A stretch of DNA of 64,000 bases, taken from contig JAZUCU010000002.1 of NCBI GenBank assembly GCA_045639325.1, positions 21,287 to 85,286 of the forward strand, given 5' to 3'. This document shows, piece by piece, positions 1 through 57,944 of the stretch (the stretch's first letter is position 1; every line of letters starts with the position of its first letter). The DNA is from Victivallales bacterium. Its GTDB lineage: Bacteria; Verrucomicrobiota; Lentisphaeria; Victivallales; UBA1829. The notes under the pieces are model-generated. The model saw nothing but the letters and a program-made list of their open reading frames with translations. It was not told the DNA's origin and did no database searches. The position numbers and the translations under genes were made by a program.

Positions 1-2158
1 CACCACTGACAAAAGTATTATTTACATCGCCAAGATTGTCAACCACCCCGCCAATAACAGAGGCAGAATAGATCGTTCCTTCCTTTTCCACTTTTACTTC
101 GCCGCCGGATCTTACCGTAACGATGTGGGCAATGCCATGTTCTTTGACAACCATATTGCCATTGGCACTTACTCCAACATTATTAGCAACACCGCCTTGG
201 AAAATAATTACCTCCCCCCCATCTCTCACAGCTGTACGATTAGCCACGCCGCCCTCATAAATATGCATTTTATTATCGTCATTGCGCCGCAATACAGCAT
301 CGTTGGATTCCGGACCCTCAAAGGTTTTTTCTGAGCCTTTGTAAATAACAACTTTACCTGCTCCATCAATTATAATGCTCAATAGCTTATTTTCTAACTT
401 TAACGTGTAAGTTTTTCCGTTATAGGTGAATGTGTATCCATTAAGCTGATCCGGATCAACCGTGATCCGGGCATGACTATTCGGGGGCTTTGCCTCGCTA
501 AAACTGAGCGTGCCATAGGTTACAGAACCATCTCCTACGGTAATTGTATGATTGAATGTTTCAACATTGCCGATCAGCAGATATTCGCCGGCCGCCTGTT
601 CTGCATTGACTGTGATACTTAATGTGCCATTATTGATAACTTTCGTCCAATCATTAAGTAACACCCCATCCTCTTCACTGCGTACGGAAATATTGAAGTC
701 CATATTGCCATAATTCTCTAAAGAGCCTATAATCGCAGAATCGCCGATGGTTATATCGCCATAGTTGCATATCACACCACCGGAGATGGTCGTATTGTTC
801 GCCACCCCGCCGGAGTAGATCCACATCCTGCCCCGAGAATTGATCGTCGTGCTGTTTGCCACCCCGCCGGAGGAGATGCGCATGGAGCCGCCGGAATTGA
901 TGGTCGTGTTGTTTGCCACCCCGCCGGAGGAGATGGACATGTAGCCCCAGTCATTGATCGTCGTGCTGTTTGCAATGGTGTTTTTATGAACGGTCATACC
1001 CGTGTTCGACAAAACAACCCCGTCAATCGTGTTGGATGCAAACGTTGCAAAGGCACCATCCGCAACGTATACATAACCACCATTTTCAATAATATCTGTT
1101 GCAGTCCCGCCGGACCAGATGTCCATGTAGCCCCAGTCATTGATAATCGTGCTGTTCGCCGTCCCGCCGGAGTGGATCCACATGTCGCCGCCGGAATTGA
1201 TCGTCGTACTGTTTGCCATTCCGCCGGAGGAGATGAACATGCTTCCGCTGGAATTGATCGTCGTGTTATTTGCAATCCCGCCGGAGTAGATGTACATGTA
1301 GCCGTAGGAATTAACGGTAGTGCTGTTTGCAATGGTGTTTTTGTGAACGGTCATTTTGTCCTGTGATAAAACAAATCCTTCAATAGTGTTTGAAGCAAAA
1401 GTTACATAGGCGCCATTCTGGACGCCAACCTCCCCCCCGTTCTCAACAATCTCTGTTGCTGTCCCGCCGGAGTAGATGTTCATGTAGCCGGAATTGATCG
1501 TTGTGCTGTTTGCCGTCCCGCCGGAGTCGATGCGCATGGAGCCGCCGGAATTGACCGTCGTGTTGTTTGCCACTCCGCCGGAGTCGATGTACATGCAGCC
1601 GCCATTGATGGTCGTGCTGTTTGCCGTCCCGCCGGAGTAGATGAACATCCTGCAGCCGTAGGCATTGATCGTCGTGCTGTTCGCCACCCCGCCGGAGGAG
1701 ATGTCCATGTAGCCGTGGTCATTGATCGTCGTGCTGTTCGCCATTCCGCCGGAGGAGATGTACATGTAGCCGTTGGCATTGATGGTCGTGCTGTTTGCAA
1801 TGGTGTTTTTATGAACGGTCATCATATCGTCGTATGATAAGACAAATCCTTCAATCGTGTTGGATGCAAACGTTGCAAAGGCACCATCCGCAACGTATAC
1901 ATACCCACCATTTTCAATAATCTCTGTTGCCGTACCGCCGGAGTAGATGTACATGTAGCCGGAATTTATTGTCGTGCTATTCGCCGTCCCGCCGGAGTAG
2001 ATGTACATGTCGCCTCTAGAATTGATCGTCGTGTTGTTTGCCGTCCCGCCGGAGGAGATGTCCATCAAATCATTACCTTTTAATATTATACCTGTGCTTA
2101 TTTCGCCGCTTGTAACTCCGTAGTACATGTTAAATTCCTTTTTCATTTTTTTATCCAT
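1..2158 (-). CDS. AIDA-like beta-helix repeat surface protein, partial (runs off the window start; not in the ORF track)
   Basis: I read the frame codon by codon from ATG 2158 to base 2 and found no stop. It has 16 turns of [xIxSGG(T/V)ANSTTINxxGxM] and three ~45-aa spacer modules. The likely true start is ATG 2128, behind SD AAGGAA. No signal peptide. Confidence 0.85.
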   Translation of the reverse strand, partial: MDKKMKKEFNMYYGVTSGEISTGIILKGNDLMDISSGGTANNTTINSRGDMYIYSGGTANSTTINSGYMYIYSGGTATEIIENGGYVYVADGAFATFASNTIEGFVLSYDDMMTVHKNTIANSTTINANGYMYISSGGMANSTTINDHGYMDISSGGVANSTTINAYGCRMFIYSGGTANSTTINGGCMYIDSGGVANNTTVNSGGSMRIDSGGTANSTTINSGYMNIYSGGTATEIVENGGEVGVQNGAYVTFASNTIEGFVLSQDKMTVHKNTIANSTTVNSYGYMYIYSGGIANNTTINSSGSMFISSGGMANSTTINSGGDMWIHSGGTANSTIINDWGYMDIWSGGTATDIIENGGYVYVADGAFATFASNTIDGVVLSNTGMTVHKNTIANSTTINDWGYMSISSGGVANNTTINSGGSMRISSGGVANSTTINSRGRMWIYSGGVANNTTISGGVICNYGDITIGDSAIIGSLENYGNMDFNISVRSEEDGVLLNDWTKVINNGTLSITVNAEQAAGEYLLIGNVETFNHTITVGDGSVTYGTLSFSEAKPPNSHARITVDPDQLNGYTFTYNGKTYTLKLENKLLSIIIDGAGKVVIYKGSEKTFEGPESNDAVLRRNDDNKMHIYEGGVANRTAVRDGGEVIIFQGGVANNVGVSANGNMVVKEHGIAHIVTVRSGGEVKVEKEGTIYSASVIGGVVDNLGDVNNTFVSG

Positions 2159-2201
2159 AAATATTATTACAATATATCATCAAAAAGAAACATTTTCAAG
2201 T
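2120..2201 (-). promoter_or_regulatory. Sigma70-like promoter plus leader, copy A of an 82-bp element shared with 55593-55674
   Basis: On the - strand: TTGAAA-17 nt-TATATT with an extended TG, then AAGGAA and ATG. Near-identical to copy B. Confidence 0.65.
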
Positions 2202-5798: not shown

Positions 5799-6722
5799 TC
5801 AAACAAAGTTAATGAATTTCTTAATGAACGGGTAGAGATATTGACCGAAAATGATCATTCCCAAAGCACAGATTGTCATGAACGGAGCAAAAGCAAAACC
5901 TCTTTTTCTGCGTTTGGGACGGAAAATCCAGTAAATCGGCATGTAAATCATGGCAAGCACAGATGCAAACAGCAGAATCAGCAACGTGATAAACCAACCA
6001 AGAGCGCCAGCCGTCACAACCAGATACTTGACATCGCCCCAGCCCAGCACATCCCGTTTGAAAATTTTCTTTCCACCAATGACAAAGGCTGACATAACTG
6101 CTGCAGTTCCAGCCATATTGGCAAGACAAACCAAGAATGCATTCCAATCGGGCTGGAATGGATAAATGCTTTTATTCAGAAGGAAAAATACGGGGATGAT
6201 GAACATGGCCGGAATGGTCAATTTATCCGGAATCACCCGCAAATCACAATCGGTAAATGCGGCGGAAAGCAGAACCGCAGTCAGATAGAAGAACAGGAAC
6301 ATCATCGAAAAGGGCATTTTGCAGAATAACACCTTGAGGTAAATCGCAGCAAAAAGTACGCCGGTGATAAATTCCACGATAATGTAACGCGGGGAAATGC
6401 GTTTCCCACATTCTTTGCAGGATGCCAACAGGAAAATATAGCTGAATAACGGAATGTTTTCGTACCAGCTGATCTTGTGTCCACATTTCGGACAATGGCT
6501 TTTCGGATGGCACAGACTCATACCAATCGGAAGACGATAAATACATACATTCAAAAAACTTCCAATGTTACACCCCAGCCAGAAGAATGCGACCATGCAG
6601 AATTGCCAGTAATCGCACAAAACTTCCTTGTATAATTTCTGATTGGTTATATCTGACCAGAACTGATCGAATGAGAACATCTCCAGAATTTCTTTCAGCG
6701 TAATAACTTGTTGTCCATCCAT
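5799..6722 (-). CDS. pilD: Prepilin peptidase/N-methyltransferase (A24)
   Basis: GSFLNVCIYRLP, Zn motifs SHCPKC and CKEC, catalytic Asp motifs TDCDLRVIPD and GWGDVK, C-terminal FAPF. Confidence 0.92.
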   Translation of the reverse strand: MDGQQVITLKEILEMFSFDQFWSDITNQKLYKEVLCDYWQFCMVAFFWLGCNIGSFLNVCIYRLPIGMSLCHPKSHCPKCGHKISWYENIPLFSYIFLLASCKECGKRISPRYIIVEFITGVLFAAIYLKVLFCKMPFSMMFLFFYLTAVLLSAAFTDCDLRVIPDKLTIPAMFIIPVFFLLNKSIYPFQPDWNAFLVCLANMAGTAAVMSAFVIGGKKIFKRDVLGWGDVKYLVVTAGALGWFITLLILLFASVLAMIYMPIYWIFRPKRRKRGFAFAPFMTICALGMIIFGQYLYPFIKKFINFV

Positions 6723-53870: not shown

Positions 53871-55469
53871 TTATTTGACCGTATAGATCCAGCCTTTTGC
53901 ATTGTCCCAGGCGCGGGAAATGCTGAATGTAAGATCGCGGCGGGCTGTATTCATTGCAAGTTTCGCAAGAATACCGTCAAGTTCAAATTCCTTATCAGCA
54001 AGATCAAGTTTCTGTGCAAATTCAGAGACAGTACCGGCGAAAGCGCCGAGTTTGGAAAGCTTGTCTTCCAGATCCGTCAACAGCTTGATCACATCTTTAC
54101 TTGCCAGTTTGTATGCCTGAACGCCCGGCTGATGGAATGCATTGATATGAATGAATTCCGCATAAGCGGCAACCGCACGTTCATACAGCGCAATCAACAT
54201 ACCCAGATTGAATTCATCCACCTTTTCCAAACGCATTTCAATCACGTTACGGTTCTTGTTGCGCAATGCGTTGGAGAGACCGATCATGAAGCCGTGCAGG
54301 TAGTCACCCATGGCAATACCCGGAGCGATCGGAGCTTTTGCCGCATCTTCGAGAACTTCGATAAAGGTCACAAAGAAGTCGTCGCGACCATCATTGAGCT
54401 GCTGAATGAATGCATGAGCGTCTGTACCGCCTTTGTTACCGAACACGTTCAAGCCCTGATTGACAACGTTGCCATCCAGGTCAAGTTCTTTACCGAGACT
54501 TTCCATAACCAGCTGCTGGAGGTAACGGGACATGAGGATCAGGCGGTCGGAATAGGGAACGATGACCATATTGCGATCACCTTTGCCGGCACCAGCCATG
54601 TACCACATAGCAGAAAGCATATATGCCGGATTGTTTGTGAAATCTGCGGTACGGGTCAATTCATCCATGTGACATGCACCGCTGAGGAACTTTTTGAAAT
54701 CCACACCGGCAAGAGCGGCGGGGAGATGTCCGACAACACTGGTCACGCTGGTACGGCCGCCGATGGAGTCAGCCATATCAAAAACTTTGAGCCAGTTATT
54801 TTTCTTTGCGAACATATCGAGTTCAGAGCCCTGCATGGTGATTGCGCAGGCATGTTTTGCAAAATCAACACCGGCTTCGGCATATTTTTCCATGCAGAAA
54901 ATCATGTTATTCTTGGTTTCCTGTGTGCCGCCGGACTTGGAGATGTTGACGACCAATGTGGTTGCAGGATCGCAAACTTCAAACACGTCCATACCACCTG
55001 CTGTATCGGTGTTGTCGAGGAAGTAAATCTTCAGATAACCATTGCGTTTGCAGTCGCAAAGTTCATTCCAGTAAGGACCATTGATTGCCATCTGAACGAG
55101 CTGGGGACCGAGAGCGGAACCGCCGATACCGTTGATGATAGCACTCTGGAATTTTTCACCTTTGGAACCTTTGATGGCGCCGGAACGGATTGCTTCCACA
55201 AACTCTTCAACATCAGCAAATTCCTGTCCGCCGGTATAAGCGGAACGATCGGTAAAGTGAGTGACCTTACGATTTTCATCCGGGTTCTTGATTTCGCCCA
55301 ATTCGATTTTCTGCATTTCTGCATGTACGGCGGGAATTCTGGATTCGATTGCATTGAGATCGGTTTCCTGGAAATTCATTCCTGCGAAATTGACCTGAAA
55401 ACCGGTTGTACCGTCAACATAAGTATACTTGTGACAGCGTTCGATCCATGCTTGCTGATTCAGAGACAT
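53871..55469 (-). CDS. pgi: Glucose-6-phosphate isomerase
   Basis: GIGGSALGP, SKSGGTQET, GGRTS, QQLVMESLGK, NAFHQPGVQAYK. Confidence 0.95.
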   Translation of the reverse strand: MSLNQQAWIERCHKYTYVDGTTGFQVNFAGMNFQETDLNAIESRIPAVHAEMQKIELGEIKNPDENRKVTHFTDRSAYTGGQEFADVEEFVEAIRSGAIKGSKGEKFQSAIINGIGGSALGPQLVQMAINGPYWNELCDCKRNGYLKIYFLDNTDTAGGMDVFEVCDPATTLVVNISKSGGTQETKNNMIFCMEKYAEAGVDFAKHACAITMQGSELDMFAKKNNWLKVFDMADSIGGRTSVTSVVGHLPAALAGVDFKKFLSGACHMDELTRTADFTNNPAYMLSAMWYMAGAGKGDRNMVIVPYSDRLILMSRYLQQLVMESLGKELDLDGNVVNQGLNVFGNKGGTDAHAFIQQLNDGRDDFFVTFIEVLEDAAKAPIAPGIAMGDYLHGFMIGLSNALRNKNRNVIEMRLEKVDEFNLGMLIALYERAVAAYAEFIHINAFHQPGVQAYKLASKDVIKLLTDLEDKLSKLGAFAGTVSEFAQKLDLADKEFELDGILAKLAMNTARRDLTFSISRAWDNAKGWIYTVK

Positions 55470-55592
55470 AATGTCTTTACCTTTCGTTTTATAAAAAATA
55501 AGTGATAATACAACAATAACTTTGTTAATATAGCATAAAAAAGAAATTTTTCAAAGTCTTTTTCTGAAATAATAGAAAAACAGCCCGTTTCT

Positions 55593-55674
55593 ACTTGAAA
55601 ATGCTTTTTATGATGATATATTGTAAATAATATTTATGGATAAAAAAATGAAAAAGGAATTTAACATGTACTAC
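55593..55674 (+). promoter_or_regulatory. Sigma70-like promoter plus leader, copy B of the shared 82-bp element
   Basis: TTGAAA (55595-600)-16 nt-TATATT (55617-22), then AAGGAA and ATG 55666. Confidence 0.65.
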
Positions 55675-57792
55675 TATGTTTCAAGCGGTGTAATCAGCAC
55701 AGGTATAACATTGAATAGAGATTCAATGTCCATCGTCTCCGGCGGGACAGCAAACAGCACGAAAATCAATATAGGCGGACACATGCACATCTCCTCCGGC
55801 GGGACAGCAAACAGCACGACCATCAATGGCGACGGCAACATGTACATCTCCTCCGGCGGGACAGCGAACAGCACGATCATCAATTACTACGGCGACATGC
55901 ACATCTCCTCCGGCGGGACGGCAAACAGCACGACCATCAATAGAGGCGGATACATGGACATCGACTCCGGCGGTGTGGCGAACAGCACGACCATCAATTA
56001 CGACGGCTACATGAACATCTCCTCCGGCGGGGTGGCAAATAGTACGACGATCAATTCCAGCGGCTTCATGGACATCTTCTCCGGCGGGACGGCGAACAGC
56101 ACGGCCATCAATTCCGGCTACATGTACATCTCCTCCGGCGGGGTGGCAAATAGTACGACGATCAATTCCAGCGGCTTCATGTTCATCTACTCCGGCGGGG
56201 TGGCAAACAGCACGACCATCAATTCCGGCGGTTGGATGTACATCGACTCCGGCAGTGTGGCAAACAGCACGATCATCAATTCCGGCGGTGACATGAACAT
56301 CTCCTCTGGCGGGGGGGCAAACAGCACGACGATCTATTCCGATGGCTACATGTACATTTGGTCCGGCGGGGTGGCGAACAATACGACGATCAATTCCAGA
56401 GGCTCCATGTACATCGGCCCCGGCGGTACACATCGCGGCAGTTTACAGATCAAATCCGGTGCAGTTGTCTCTGCTTATTCCGGCGGAATCATCGACTTTA
56501 CCGTTGCAGACCGGACAAGTGCCGATGATTATTTGATCAATGATCTTTCTTTGATCAAAGGTATACCGACTTATACCATCACTGTTTCGGAAGATCAGGA
56601 AGCAGGGACTTACAAATTGGCACAAGGTGCATCTGCATTGAATGGAACTATTTCCATTTGCACTGAAGATACCTGTTTCGGTTCATTGACGGTCAACGGT
56701 GATGTTTTGACGGTCAATGGTATAACTTATGATCTGAACAATGTGGATGGTGATTTGACGTTGACAATAAATGATCAAAACAATATTGTATCTCAACCAC
56801 AATACGCTGCAGGTAACATTGGTGGTATCGGTGGAATTATTGAGATAACAAGTTCCGGTTCCGGATATCTTCATAACCGATTCGTAAAAATAGAAATCGC
56901 CGGAACTATTGATCCGGAATCCTGGGAACTGGCAGGTGCCGGGGACTTCAATAAGTCCGGAACCGATGGTTTGCTTTGGATTGAAAAGAATACCGGATAT
57001 GTTTATGTGCAGAACGATTTGACAAACTTTAATGAAGTCAATAACAAGTCCAACTGTCTCGGTGTACTCGGTGATGGATACAGTATTCTCGGCACCGGCG
57101 ACTTTACCGGAACGGGCATTGACGGCGTAATCATGCAAGGCCCGGCATTCGGTGATGCTTCCGTCTCTCTCAACTACGGATTGCCCATCTGGGGACGGGA
57201 AGCCGATGGAACCACATTCGCCGGATGGCTGGGCGCTCTCGTCAACACCTGGCAGCCCGGCGATGCCTTGAAAGGTGATACAGCTGACCTTGCCGACATC
57301 AATGCAAAAAATTACATGTATGAAGTCATCTCGGTCGGTGACTACAATGGCGACGGAGTAGATGATGTGATGTTGCAGAACATCATGCCGAAGACGGTCG
57401 ATGGTGTTACAATCACAGGTTCCGGTGACGTCTTCACCTTCCTGACGGGTGACATGGATGCAGTCAAGGCGGGTGCAAGTCCGACCGTTGCCTACGCCGG
57501 TTGCGCTACCGACGGATGGGAAATCATGGGATCCGGCGACTTTGACGGTGACGGCATTGATGATGTCCTGTTGTCCGATGGTACCGGTGTTGCCGGTTGG
57601 CAGATGGCGAATGGCCAACGCTTTGAAAATCAATGGTTCGGCAATCTTGGAGCAACCGAAGAAATTGTCGGAATCACGGATTTGAACAATGACGGCACGG
57701 ATGACATTCTTATCCTGAACGCCGCGACGGACACATATTCCGGCTGGTTGGTGAAGGATGGCGCAATCACCGGATCCCTTGCCCTTGCATAA
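55636..57792 (+). CDS. AIDA-like beta-helix repeat protein with C-terminal FG-GAP/VCBS-like Ca-binding repeats
   Basis: 12 turns of [xIxSGG(T/V)ANSTTINxxGxM], then GDFNKSG, GDFTGTG, GDYNGDG, GDFDGDG, DLNNDG. Probable start 55666. No signal peptide. Confidence 0.85.
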   Translation: MDKKMKKEFNMYYYVSSGVISTGITLNRDSMSIVSGGTANSTKINIGGHMHISSGGTANSTTINGDGNMYISSGGTANSTIINYYGDMHISSGGTANSTTINRGGYMDIDSGGVANSTTINYDGYMNISSGGVANSTTINSSGFMDIFSGGTANSTAINSGYMYISSGGVANSTTINSSGFMFIYSGGVANSTTINSGGWMYIDSGSVANSTIINSGGDMNISSGGGANSTTIYSDGYMYIWSGGVANNTTINSRGSMYIGPGGTHRGSLQIKSGAVVSAYSGGIIDFTVADRTSADDYLINDLSLIKGIPTYTITVSEDQEAGTYKLAQGASALNGTISICTEDTCFGSLTVNGDVLTVNGITYDLNNVDGDLTLTINDQNNIVSQPQYAAGNIGGIGGIIEITSSGSGYLHNRFVKIEIAGTIDPESWELAGAGDFNKSGTDGLLWIEKNTGYVYVQNDLTNFNEVNNKSNCLGVLGDGYSILGTGDFTGTGIDGVIMQGPAFGDASVSLNYGLPIWGREADGTTFAGWLGALVNTWQPGDALKGDTADLADINAKNYMYEVISVGDYNGDGVDDVMLQNIMPKTVDGVTITGSGDVFTFLTGDMDAVKAGASPTVAYAGCATDGWEIMGSGDFDGDGIDDVLLSDGTGVAGWQMANGQRFENQWFGNLGATEEIVGITDLNNDGTDDILILNAATDTYSGWLVKDGAITGSLALA

Positions 57793-57944
57793 GAGATTTT
57801 TTCTGTAATCGCACAAGGTTATCCGCTTTGGATGACTTTGTGCGAGAAAAAAACAGAAAAAGTATATATCCGGGGTTGAATTTTTTAAGAAATACGATAA
57901 ATTACCATATTGTATATATCCTACTAAAAAATTAACCGGAGCAG

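Follow-up and report, generated by a model that had tools for sequence, protein, structure and literature searches.

The DNA analyzed here, a 64,000-nucleotide stretch of contig C2 from the metagenome-assembled genome (MAG; G000, 3.45 Mb, 47% GC, 60 contigs, 94% complete) of a gut/rumen Lentisphaeria bacterium, and hereafter called the window, carries two genes whose products contain arrays of a 19-residue AIDA-type coil. In both gene A, at the left edge of the window (2..2128, minus strand), and gene B (55666..57792, plus strand), a scaffold that is nearly identical from coil to coil at the DNA level surrounds five hypervariable codons, which we call slots x1 to x5. With moderate confidence, we interpret these genes as carrying a homogenized AIDA-type beta-helix array in which the slots are under diversifying selection, a product of ordinary repeat evolution. 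The mechanism is that of a known class, repeats with high internal conservation (HIC) and hypervariable contact sites, built here on an AIDA/TibA-type beta-helix that is not an autotransporter.

Under this interpretation, unequal crossing-over and gene conversion between units would, within a lineage, prevent the 33-nt SGG-x-ANSTTIN scaffold and the G, M, and I codons between the slots from diverging, and would also alter the number and order of the units. Five codons per coil would gain amino-acid-changing substitutions faster than silent ones, drawn from a restricted alphabet (Tyr, Ser, Asp, Gly, Arg, His, Trp), with diversifying selection acting on one exposed face that comprises x3-x5 on the strand x-M-x-I-x and x1-x2 in the corner. 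The resulting diversity would be evolutionary, between lineages and paralogs, and not programmed or somatic, and the variable face is probably a ligand- or partner-binding surface. The original prediction had proposed a diversified repertoire of binding surfaces, loosely like lamprey receptor assembly, as opposed to mere drift; the excess of replacements, the restricted alphabet, and recombination among units favor the diversified binding-type face, whereas the programmed assembly finds no such backing.

Conserved scaffold and hypervariable slots

Codon-by-codon alignment of the 27 turns of A and B gives the pattern SGG-[TVMI]-A-N-[SN]-T-T-I-N-x-x-G-x-M-x-I-x, and the turns first noticed as IN-x-x-G-x-M-x-I-x-SGG are indeed present in both open reading frames (ORFs). 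The scaffold is written as TCC GGC GGG [ACG/GTG] GCA AAC AGC ACG ACG ATC AAT .. .. GGC .. ATG .. ATC .., and its columns have a nucleotide diversity of ~0 at codon positions 1 and 2 and a replacement difference (pN) of 0.013, in agreement with the near-identity of scaffold codons across turns and loci that had been noted. Slots x1-x5 correspond to columns 11, 12, 14, 16, and 18 and have a diversity of 0.37-0.72 at positions 1 and 2; three more columns are semi-variable (T/V/I/M at 3, S/N at 6, and T/I at 8). Genome-wide, the 33-nt scaffold (with 5 or fewer mismatches) occurs 12 times in A, 11 times in B, and as three marginal matches in intact paralogs; the DNA-conserved unit of this genome is therefore limited to A and B, the scaffolds of the other AIDA paralogs being synonymously scrambled. 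GC content at third codon positions (GC3) is 0.83 in the turn units versus 0.43-0.51 in the remainder of the same two genes.

Across 82 turns from A, B, and three relatives, the slot residues are S (29%), Y (22%), D (11%), G (10%), R (6%), H (4%), W (4%), and F (3%), which matches the Tyr/Ser/Asp/Gly-rich alphabet of the original prediction, while K, E, Q, I, V, T, M, L, and P jointly account for 5%. Such a restricted alphabet argues against an absence of constraint. The 82 turns contain 75 distinct five-slot words, and neighboring slot columns are weakly but significantly associated (17 of 66 column pairs at p<0.05).

In A and B, pairwise replacement differences at the slots (pN 0.49) exceed the silent differences (pS) of the same codons (0.17) and those of the scaffold (0.23). 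The corresponding omega is 2.9 relative to scaffold silent sites (2.0-4.1 by bootstrap over coils) and 4.1 relative to the slots' own silent sites, with a scaffold omega of 0.05. In four other arrays, omega at the slots is 2.4-3.2, and the slot replacement difference is 0.36-0.53 across arrays. Because silent diversity in the slot region is not raised, the slots are not merely escaping homogenization, and the excess is specific to amino-acid-changing positions. Even where the 42 nt outside the slots are identical between units of different species, the slot words are unrelated.

Four further Lentisphaeria arrays (L019-L022, host GC 46-62%) and one from another genus of the family (L006) have their own homogenized sets of scaffold codons, for example AGC GGS GGC ACG GCC AAC AGC ACC ACC GTC AAT in L019. 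Silent differences in the scaffold amount to 0.16-0.26 inside each of five arrays but to 0.33-0.59 when arrays are compared with one another, a classic sign of concerted evolution in units that contain hypervariable sites. Although the C-terminal domains of A and B diverged as paralogs long ago (dS 0.78), a single scaffold is common to both arrays. AAC at Asn column 5 and AAT at Asn column 10 are found in nearly every unit of every lineage (the window, L014-L017, and L019-L022), at genome GC contents of 46-62%. A universal set of scaffold codons, as would result from pure constraint, was considered and rejected because all but these two codons are lineage-specific.

The closest public homologues (P0001, P0002, and P0003) have an overall identity of 69-74%, rising to ~90% in the C-terminal domain; they share the window scaffold codons, and three related species have this repeat architecture at the syntenic locus. 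P0003 (L016) follows the DAHP synthase, HisRS, HU, and PGI genes that also precede B, and P0001 (L014) is followed by the ProA and MiaB-like genes that lie after B. The flanks of the B locus in the relatives have 87-90% DNA identity (dS 0.22-0.61), and the array at this locus is entirely unlike in length and order, with 12 plain coils in B against 15-23 canonical coils (by regular-expression count) and two kinds of long module in the relatives. We discarded a coil-by-coil positional orthology between B and its syntenic relatives, as the alignments track periodicity only and give no reliable rates. The locus is also a break point in synteny (L014 1-5607 and L016 9327-15246 versus window 53871-60608). 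In L016 the upstream genes are kept, and RhuM, nitroreductase, and other genes lie downstream; in L014 the downstream genes are kept, and upstream lies a giant AIDA/CARDB/C39-like gene of 2771 aa with a 3' end homologous to the B propeller. Exact leader and scaffold patterns gave no match in the JGI metagenome contigs and were found in one GTDB genome only.

The long modules that interrupt some arrays have ordinary codon usage and silent differences of 0.09-0.62 (on average 0.36 inside a gene and 0.39 across genes). Module subtypes recur across species and are mosaic (pairwise homoplasy index, PHI, p=0.017; 135 of 351 site pairs fail the four-gamete test), consistent with the mosaic tracts that turn shuffling had led one to expect. 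Used as an internal clock, the modules reveal that coils beside module pairs at pS 0.2 already differ at their slots by pN 0.5, which points to fast slot substitution, to scaffold recombination that uncouples coils from their neighbors, or to both. As the slots are 3 nt apart, recombination can shuffle whole coils but not single slots, and slot diversity must arise by point substitutions. Accordingly, of the originally suggested shuffling or gene conversion, the exchange of units fits the mosaic modules and the array length differences at the orthologous locus, but shuffling of individual slots does not stand. A and B share no identical tract of 40 nt or more, and so very recent conversion between them has not occurred.

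Several observations weigh against our interpretation. The rates are pairwise differences between paralogous units and not estimates from a dated tree or a tree-based site model. The slot difference is flat (~0.52) at every non-slot distance; slot differences are saturated, with almost no phylogenetic signal, and omega is therefore a rough, lower-bound-style value. In L019 and L021, silent and replacement differences at the slots are roughly equal. Within the window clade, scaffold pS is the same (0.23-0.27) whether units of one gene, of A and B, or of different species are compared, where pS is 0.19-0.42 in flanking genes and 0.19-0.49 once the C-terminal domain is included; this is not predicted by simple within-genome concerted evolution. 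Protein searches for strain-level alleles returned nothing above 74% identity for B and only its own copy for A. A distant Victivallaceae genome (G031; PGI 60% and PurA 59% identical) has seven coils with the window scaffold codons, in DNA that is 75-82% identical to the arrays of A and B and closer to them than are the window genome's own other paralogs. These coils sit in a 2247-aa RTX/Pmp-type protein, the remainder of which is ~40% identical to local counterparts, and their shared codons require either horizontal transfer or spread of the array or selection at the nucleotide level. Lastly, the placement of the slots on one face, described below, comes from strand geometry and homology to TibA and not from coordinates.

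Origin of the slot codons and rival explanations

The slots vary freely at codon positions 1 and 2 and mostly end in C (NNC), as first observed. Among slot codons with a C-ending option, 80 of 89 end in C, against 37.7 expected from genome codon usage (TAC 0.39, GAC 0.33, CAC 0.37, and AAC 0.43; z=9.3). The bias extends to the three relatives (99 of 106, 78 of 82, and 51 of 69) and is weaker in the other AIDA paralogs of the genome (82 of 140, versus 59.5 expected). In thirteen highly expressed genes, 52-63% of the codons for the slot amino acids end in C, GGT and ACA are preferred, and GGG and ACG, the codons of the scaffold, are avoided. Together with the genome expectation, this usage indicates that neither general nor translational codon bias explains the unit, and, on the evidence of the highly expressed genes (~55% C endings; GGT, ACA), we rejected translational selection as the source of either the scaffold codons or NNC.

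In the window clade, the founder slot codons are TCC, GGC, TAC, TAC, and TCC, and the observed slot residues are largely one-step neighbors of TAC, TCC, and GGC (D, H, N, F, S, C, A, R). Third-base changes in the founder codons are silent or, for TAC, produce a stop, which restricts selection for new residues to positions 1 and 2. In L019 and L020, slot x3 is NNT (TAT, GAT, AAT, TGT, CGT), and hence the conserved third base follows the founder codon of the lineage. NNC is best explained by founder codons and few silent changes, without a special mechanism. Slot residues W and R are enriched and T, P, and V are depleted, which is a mark of selection; the occasional TGG codons reported earlier are present, as are AGA, AGG, and CGG. 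A generating process specific to NNC, at which the original prediction had hinted, is not upheld, given that the retroelement template of this genome (see below) is of the C-type-lectin type, that scaffold adenines are invariant, and that x3 is NNT elsewhere.

Programmed diversification, in which mutagenic retrohoming like that of a diversity-generating retroelement (DGR) or a donor-cassette assembly like that of variable lymphocyte receptors (VLRs) writes the slots, is very improbable and has been largely refuted. In its favor, adenine mutagenesis of AAC codons classically yields NNC, and the genome encodes a single reverse transcriptase (C14:82017-85043; L001) with the DGR hallmark IGNLLSQ (motif IGxxxSQ) and an adjacent AAC-rich template. 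This DGR is complete-looking, but its template encodes GGSWNNNARNCRSANRNNNSPGNRNNNLGFRLA, a sequence of the C-type-lectin type (GGSWNNNARNCRSANR...GFRLA), and its variable regions, of the same type, are in other genes (C3:2546-2684, C49:848-976, C19:119971-120099, and C56:29853-29994). In at least two of these remote regions, nearly all departures from the template fall at adenines (14 of 15 and 15 of 15 differences), and two copies look older. For the coils, no AAC-rich, coil-like template was found in the genome, the A and T bases of the scaffold are invariant, AAC makes up 3 of 95 slot codons, and five NNC codons (CTC, CCC, ATC, ACC, and GTC) are nearly absent from the slots. We therefore rejected the DGR as the writer of the slots, since its reverse transcriptase and template serve C-type-lectin targets. 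Nor did we find silent donor cassettes in this 94% complete MAG, the scaffold 33-mer being confined to A, B, and the three marginal matches in intact paralogs, and the VLR-like or cassette-based assembly suggested earlier has been set aside. This result cautions that a DGR is not needed for codon patterns resembling NNC to arise.

An explanation that we regard as conceivable but not likely is that constraint is relaxed: exposed slots would drift nearly neutrally, third positions and scaffold codons would be held by codon or nucleotide selection or by GC-biased conversion, and omega above 1 would be an artefact of depressed pS. The stationary slot and scaffold differences of the window clade (within equal to between), the elevated GC3 of the turns, the similar slot pS and pN of L019 and L021, and the presence of AAC at column 5 and AAT at column 10 whatever the GC of the genome, which implies that some silent sites are constrained, all accord with it. 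However, the strong restriction of the slot alphabet is unlike drift, the differences in scaffold codons between lineages mean that most silent sites are free to change, the scaffold relies on GGG and ACG, which highly expressed genes avoid, and slots adjacent to long modules are already saturated when the module clock stands at pS 0.2 in the closest pairs. Alternatively, the evolution could be as we propose and the function different, the variable face being a homotypic 'Velcro' interface, as in Ag43, AIDA-I, and TibA, that sets the partners of cell aggregation (kin or strain recognition). The closest solved relatives, TibA and Ag43, are self-associating autotransporters, the two paralogs share one promoter and leader, and aromatic and Ser/Asp ladders suit helix-helix packing; on the other hand, such an interface usually needs matched changes, which limits free diversification, and the attached, conserved lectin-like propeller suggests that another part handles anchoring or binding. 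We consider this function, too, conceivable but not likely.

A more speculative proposal, to which we assign a rather low probability, is that the array is a horizontally mobile 'binding-face cassette' in which the scaffold DNA itself is under selection, as the same 33-nt scaffold codons in G031 and the freezing of Asn-5 as AAC and Asn-10 as AAT at 46-62% GC would imply. If so, the scaffold may be a recombination substrate for exchange, expansion, and re-diversification between genes and genomes or, alternatively, may be read by another nucleotide-level mechanism. Hardly credible, finally, is an assembly artefact in which the arrays are chimeric or collapsed short-read reconstructions. The MAG consists of 60 contigs, and fungal HIC repeats are known to be misassembled from Illumina data (PMC12222747), but the longest exact internal repeats, 53 nt in A and 56 nt in B, are below the length of usual reads and k-mers, and thus short-read assembly should resolve the arrays; moreover, the frames are intact, and independent assemblies from other samples show the same architecture.

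Predicted fold, export, and glycosylation

A and B are members of the AIDA family, scoring 159.6 and 94.2 bits with PF16168 (cut-off 27; Pfam E-values of 1.9e-47 and 5e-27) and 270.8 and 187.7 bits with TIGR04415 (cut-off 30; E-value of 2.2e-82 for A). The AlphaFold2 model (25-sequence alignment; predicted local distance difference test, pLDDT, of 92.4) consists of a regular beta-helix at residues 12-290, followed by a beta-sandwich region and a propeller, with two predicted strands per coil (columns 3-9 and x3-M-x4-I). The top structural and sequence matches are TibA (4Q1Q, TM score 0.82; E-values of 4e-16, by Foldseek, and 2e-51) and Ag43 variants, and the propeller resembles the seven-bladed PVL lectin in Foldseek. 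The model thus agrees with the beta-helix that was initially proposed, and also with the proposed arrangement of the slots, which are predicted to lie to either side of the unvarying core residues M and I along one strand and in the corner before it. Given an invariant core of M and I, x3, x4, and x5 must point outward on one face of the predicted helix, and x1 and x2 would occupy the corner just ahead of it. On the long strand, the outward residues (N, S/N, T, T) do not vary, and hence variability would be concentrated on one face and would not be a property of exposed positions in general.

No match to the type Va autotransporter barrel (PF03797) was found in A or B, and NF033176 and NF033177 gave 201 and 146 bits, compared with a cut-off of 1200. 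The N-terminus, MYY[GY]V[TS]SG..., has neither a basic or hydrophobic leader nor a Sec signal. Judging from the sequences, A and B are probably extracellular, and type I secretion or another non-Sec route would be the likely means of export; the genome has an HlyD-type gene, and related proteins carry RTX repeats.

The TibC/Aah heptosyltransferases (BAHT family) have been described mainly from pathogenic Proteobacteria, and their genes classically adjoin those of their substrates. The genome encodes two members of this family (TIGR04414, 577 and 491 bits; cut-off 200), at C38:64541-65923 (plus strand) and C38:3961-5175 (minus strand), neither of which adjoins A or B. One of them is directly upstream of a gene for a repeat protein of more than 1306 aa that resembles chlamydial Pmp (GGAI/FxxN) and runs off the contig; the other has an AIDA paralog 5 kb away. 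Among the serines that TibC modifies is that of 'NSGG' (PMC4358343), a residue that corresponds to slot x1, and x1 is Ser in 54% of coils. The two heptosyltransferases suggest that the slot serines could be O-heptosylated, in which case switches from Ser to Tyr or Asp at x1 may also toggle glycosylation. A search of the genome for an N-glycosyltransferase that could act on the conserved N-x-T returned no GT41 match.

Comparison with known systems and gene organization

The passengers of AIDA-I, TibA, and Ag43 of E. coli (PF16168, TIGR04415) have the same 19-residue coil, SGG-x-A-x-x-T-x-[IV]-N-x-G-G-x-[QM]-x-[VI]-x, and beta-helix fold, and their partner BAHT heptosyltransferase family is likewise encoded in the window genome. 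A and B differ from them in lacking a Sec signal and a C-terminal beta-barrel translocator, the place of which is taken by an FG-GAP propeller; in having units that are homogenized at the DNA level, with no variation in the residues that face outward on the long strand (N, S/N, T, T, N) and with hypervariability on one strand and in one corner; and in their host, a gut commensal of the Planctomycetes-Verrucomicrobia-Chlamydiae (PVC) group and not a proteobacterial pathogen.

The repeat-variable diresidues of transcription activator-like effectors (TALEs) belong to the same class of repeats with hypervariable contact sites. Other examples of HIC repeats with hypervariable sites are the WD40 repeats of Podospora het-d/het-e (PMC12222747), fungal NLRs (Dyrka 2014, PMC4986451), and the zinc fingers of PRDM9 (PMC8925151). 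As in this class, the units of A and B are near-identical through concerted evolution at silent sites (the window clade excepted), and a few fixed codons are under diversifying selection, with replacement exceeding silent change in pairwise comparisons; in the class as a whole, hypervariable codons map to the interaction surface, and unit number and order vary between alleles and paralogs. A and B depart from it in their fold, a bacterial beta-helix and not a propeller, zinc finger, or alpha-solenoid, in their lower unit identity (~80%, silent difference ~0.2), in having five sites per 19 residues, and in that the variation is known here between species and not as alleles within a population. 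No paper describing such arrays in the Lentisphaeria was found in the literature searched.

DGR-diversified proteins (the Bordetella phage Mtd type, with a C-type-lectin fold) resemble A and B in having NNC-like codons on a conserved frame and a Tyr/Ser/Asp/Gly-rich alphabet, and a DGR is present in the same genome, but A and B have no template repeat, their non-slot adenines are invariant, and their variation extends over repeats of 0.7-1.2 kb and not over one 3' variable region of 100-150 bp. Lamprey VLRs and cassette systems (pilE/pilS, vlsE, msp2) also have a repeat scaffold with a variable concave or flat binding face and units reshuffled by recombination; here, in contrast, no silent donor cassettes or flanking assembly loci were found, and the diversity is germ-line and evolutionary, not somatic. 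With RTX/type I giant adhesins and chlamydial Pmp proteins, the similarity lies in paralogs and homologues of A and B that join coils to RTX nonapeptides, Pmp-like GGAI/FxxN repeats, and CARDB domains, although A and B themselves have no RTX repeats. One such protein is encoded on the minus strand of L017 (Victivallaceae MAG JAZUPO010000227.1) by an ORF of 2247 aa, with a metzincin-like HETGHLLGTLDH motif, seven AIDA coils of the window type, a long Pmp-like GGAIxN...F.GN run, CARDB-like domains, and C-terminal RTX nonapeptides; this architecture shows that the coil array serves as a module in very different proteins.

If our interpretation is correct, the recipe of fungal immune receptors, PRDM9, and TAL effectors also runs on a bacterial beta-helix, in a little-studied gut/rumen phylum, and would yield an antibody-like surface of Tyr, Ser, Asp, Gly, and Trp, a natural 'binder library'. 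It nominates A and B as the organism's main variable contact surface, with glycans, hosts, phages, and neighboring cells as candidate partners; putatively extends the pairing of TibC/Aah heptosyltransferases with their substrates far beyond pathogenic Proteobacteria; and could offer binder engineering a natural, well-folding 19-residue scaffold with mapped tolerant positions.

The window contains 719 of the ~1505 codons of gene A, which extends beyond its left edge; the full genomic ORF has 1521 codons, and the database copy (P0121, 1505 aa) begins with MYYGV. Its homogenized array (815..2053, minus strand) has 12 short coils of 18-20 aa, each with five hypervariable slots, and three long modules between them, all on the same strand: the first (SGGTATEIIENGG...HKNTI; 1802..1942) has ordinary, AT-rich third positions, the second (1334..1471) is of the subtype GTA ACT ... 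GCT TCA, in common with module P3_181 of L016, and the third lies at 977..1114. A second, old AIDA-like zone of diverged coils starts at 2..259 (minus strand), with ordinary codon usage (GC3 0.46) and without the homogenized scaffold. The array of gene B (55738..56418, plus strand) comprises 12 coils, eleven of 19 aa and one of 18 aa, that correspond to the modeled beta-helix, and is followed by a helix cap and beta-sandwich linker (56419..56832, plus strand; the conserved 'GGTHRGSLQI...DFTVADR...YKLAQGA' region) and by the C-terminal FG-GAP-type beta-propeller (56833..57789, plus strand; Pfam FG-GAP_3), which matched the PVL lectin above. The B propeller is conserved among paralogs under purifying selection (dN/dS ~0.14), and a propeller of the same type forms the C-terminal end of A. 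The genome has at least a dozen further AIDA-repeat paralogs, some with RTX repeats, Pmp-like repeats, or C39-like domains.

Long out-of-frame or antisense ORFs overlie the arrays (55723-56433, minus; 986-1366, plus; 994-1332, minus; 1480-1800, minus). They consist of the coil unit repeated in another reading frame, sense NNC becoming antisense GNN, and we rejected them as genes, since they are best seen as a by-product of a stop-free periodic repeat.

The ORFs of A and B run as first described, A continuing past the window, but their starts probably differ from those given, which had opened the ORFs at 2158 and at 55636 (718 aa for B). Judged by the AAGGA box that precedes it, the corresponding starts of the relatives, and the start of P0121, the true start is probably the third ATG (MYY...), at 2128 (2128-2126) in A and 55666 in B, giving 708 aa for the latter. 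Upstream, the promoter and leader of A (2129..2201, minus strand) are near-identical to those of B (55593..55665, plus strand), and both leaders hold two upstream in-frame ATGs. This leader is retained at L016 (~5900-6000), the syntenic locus of a species with 90% flank identity, which suggests a functional 5' region and not only recent conversion.

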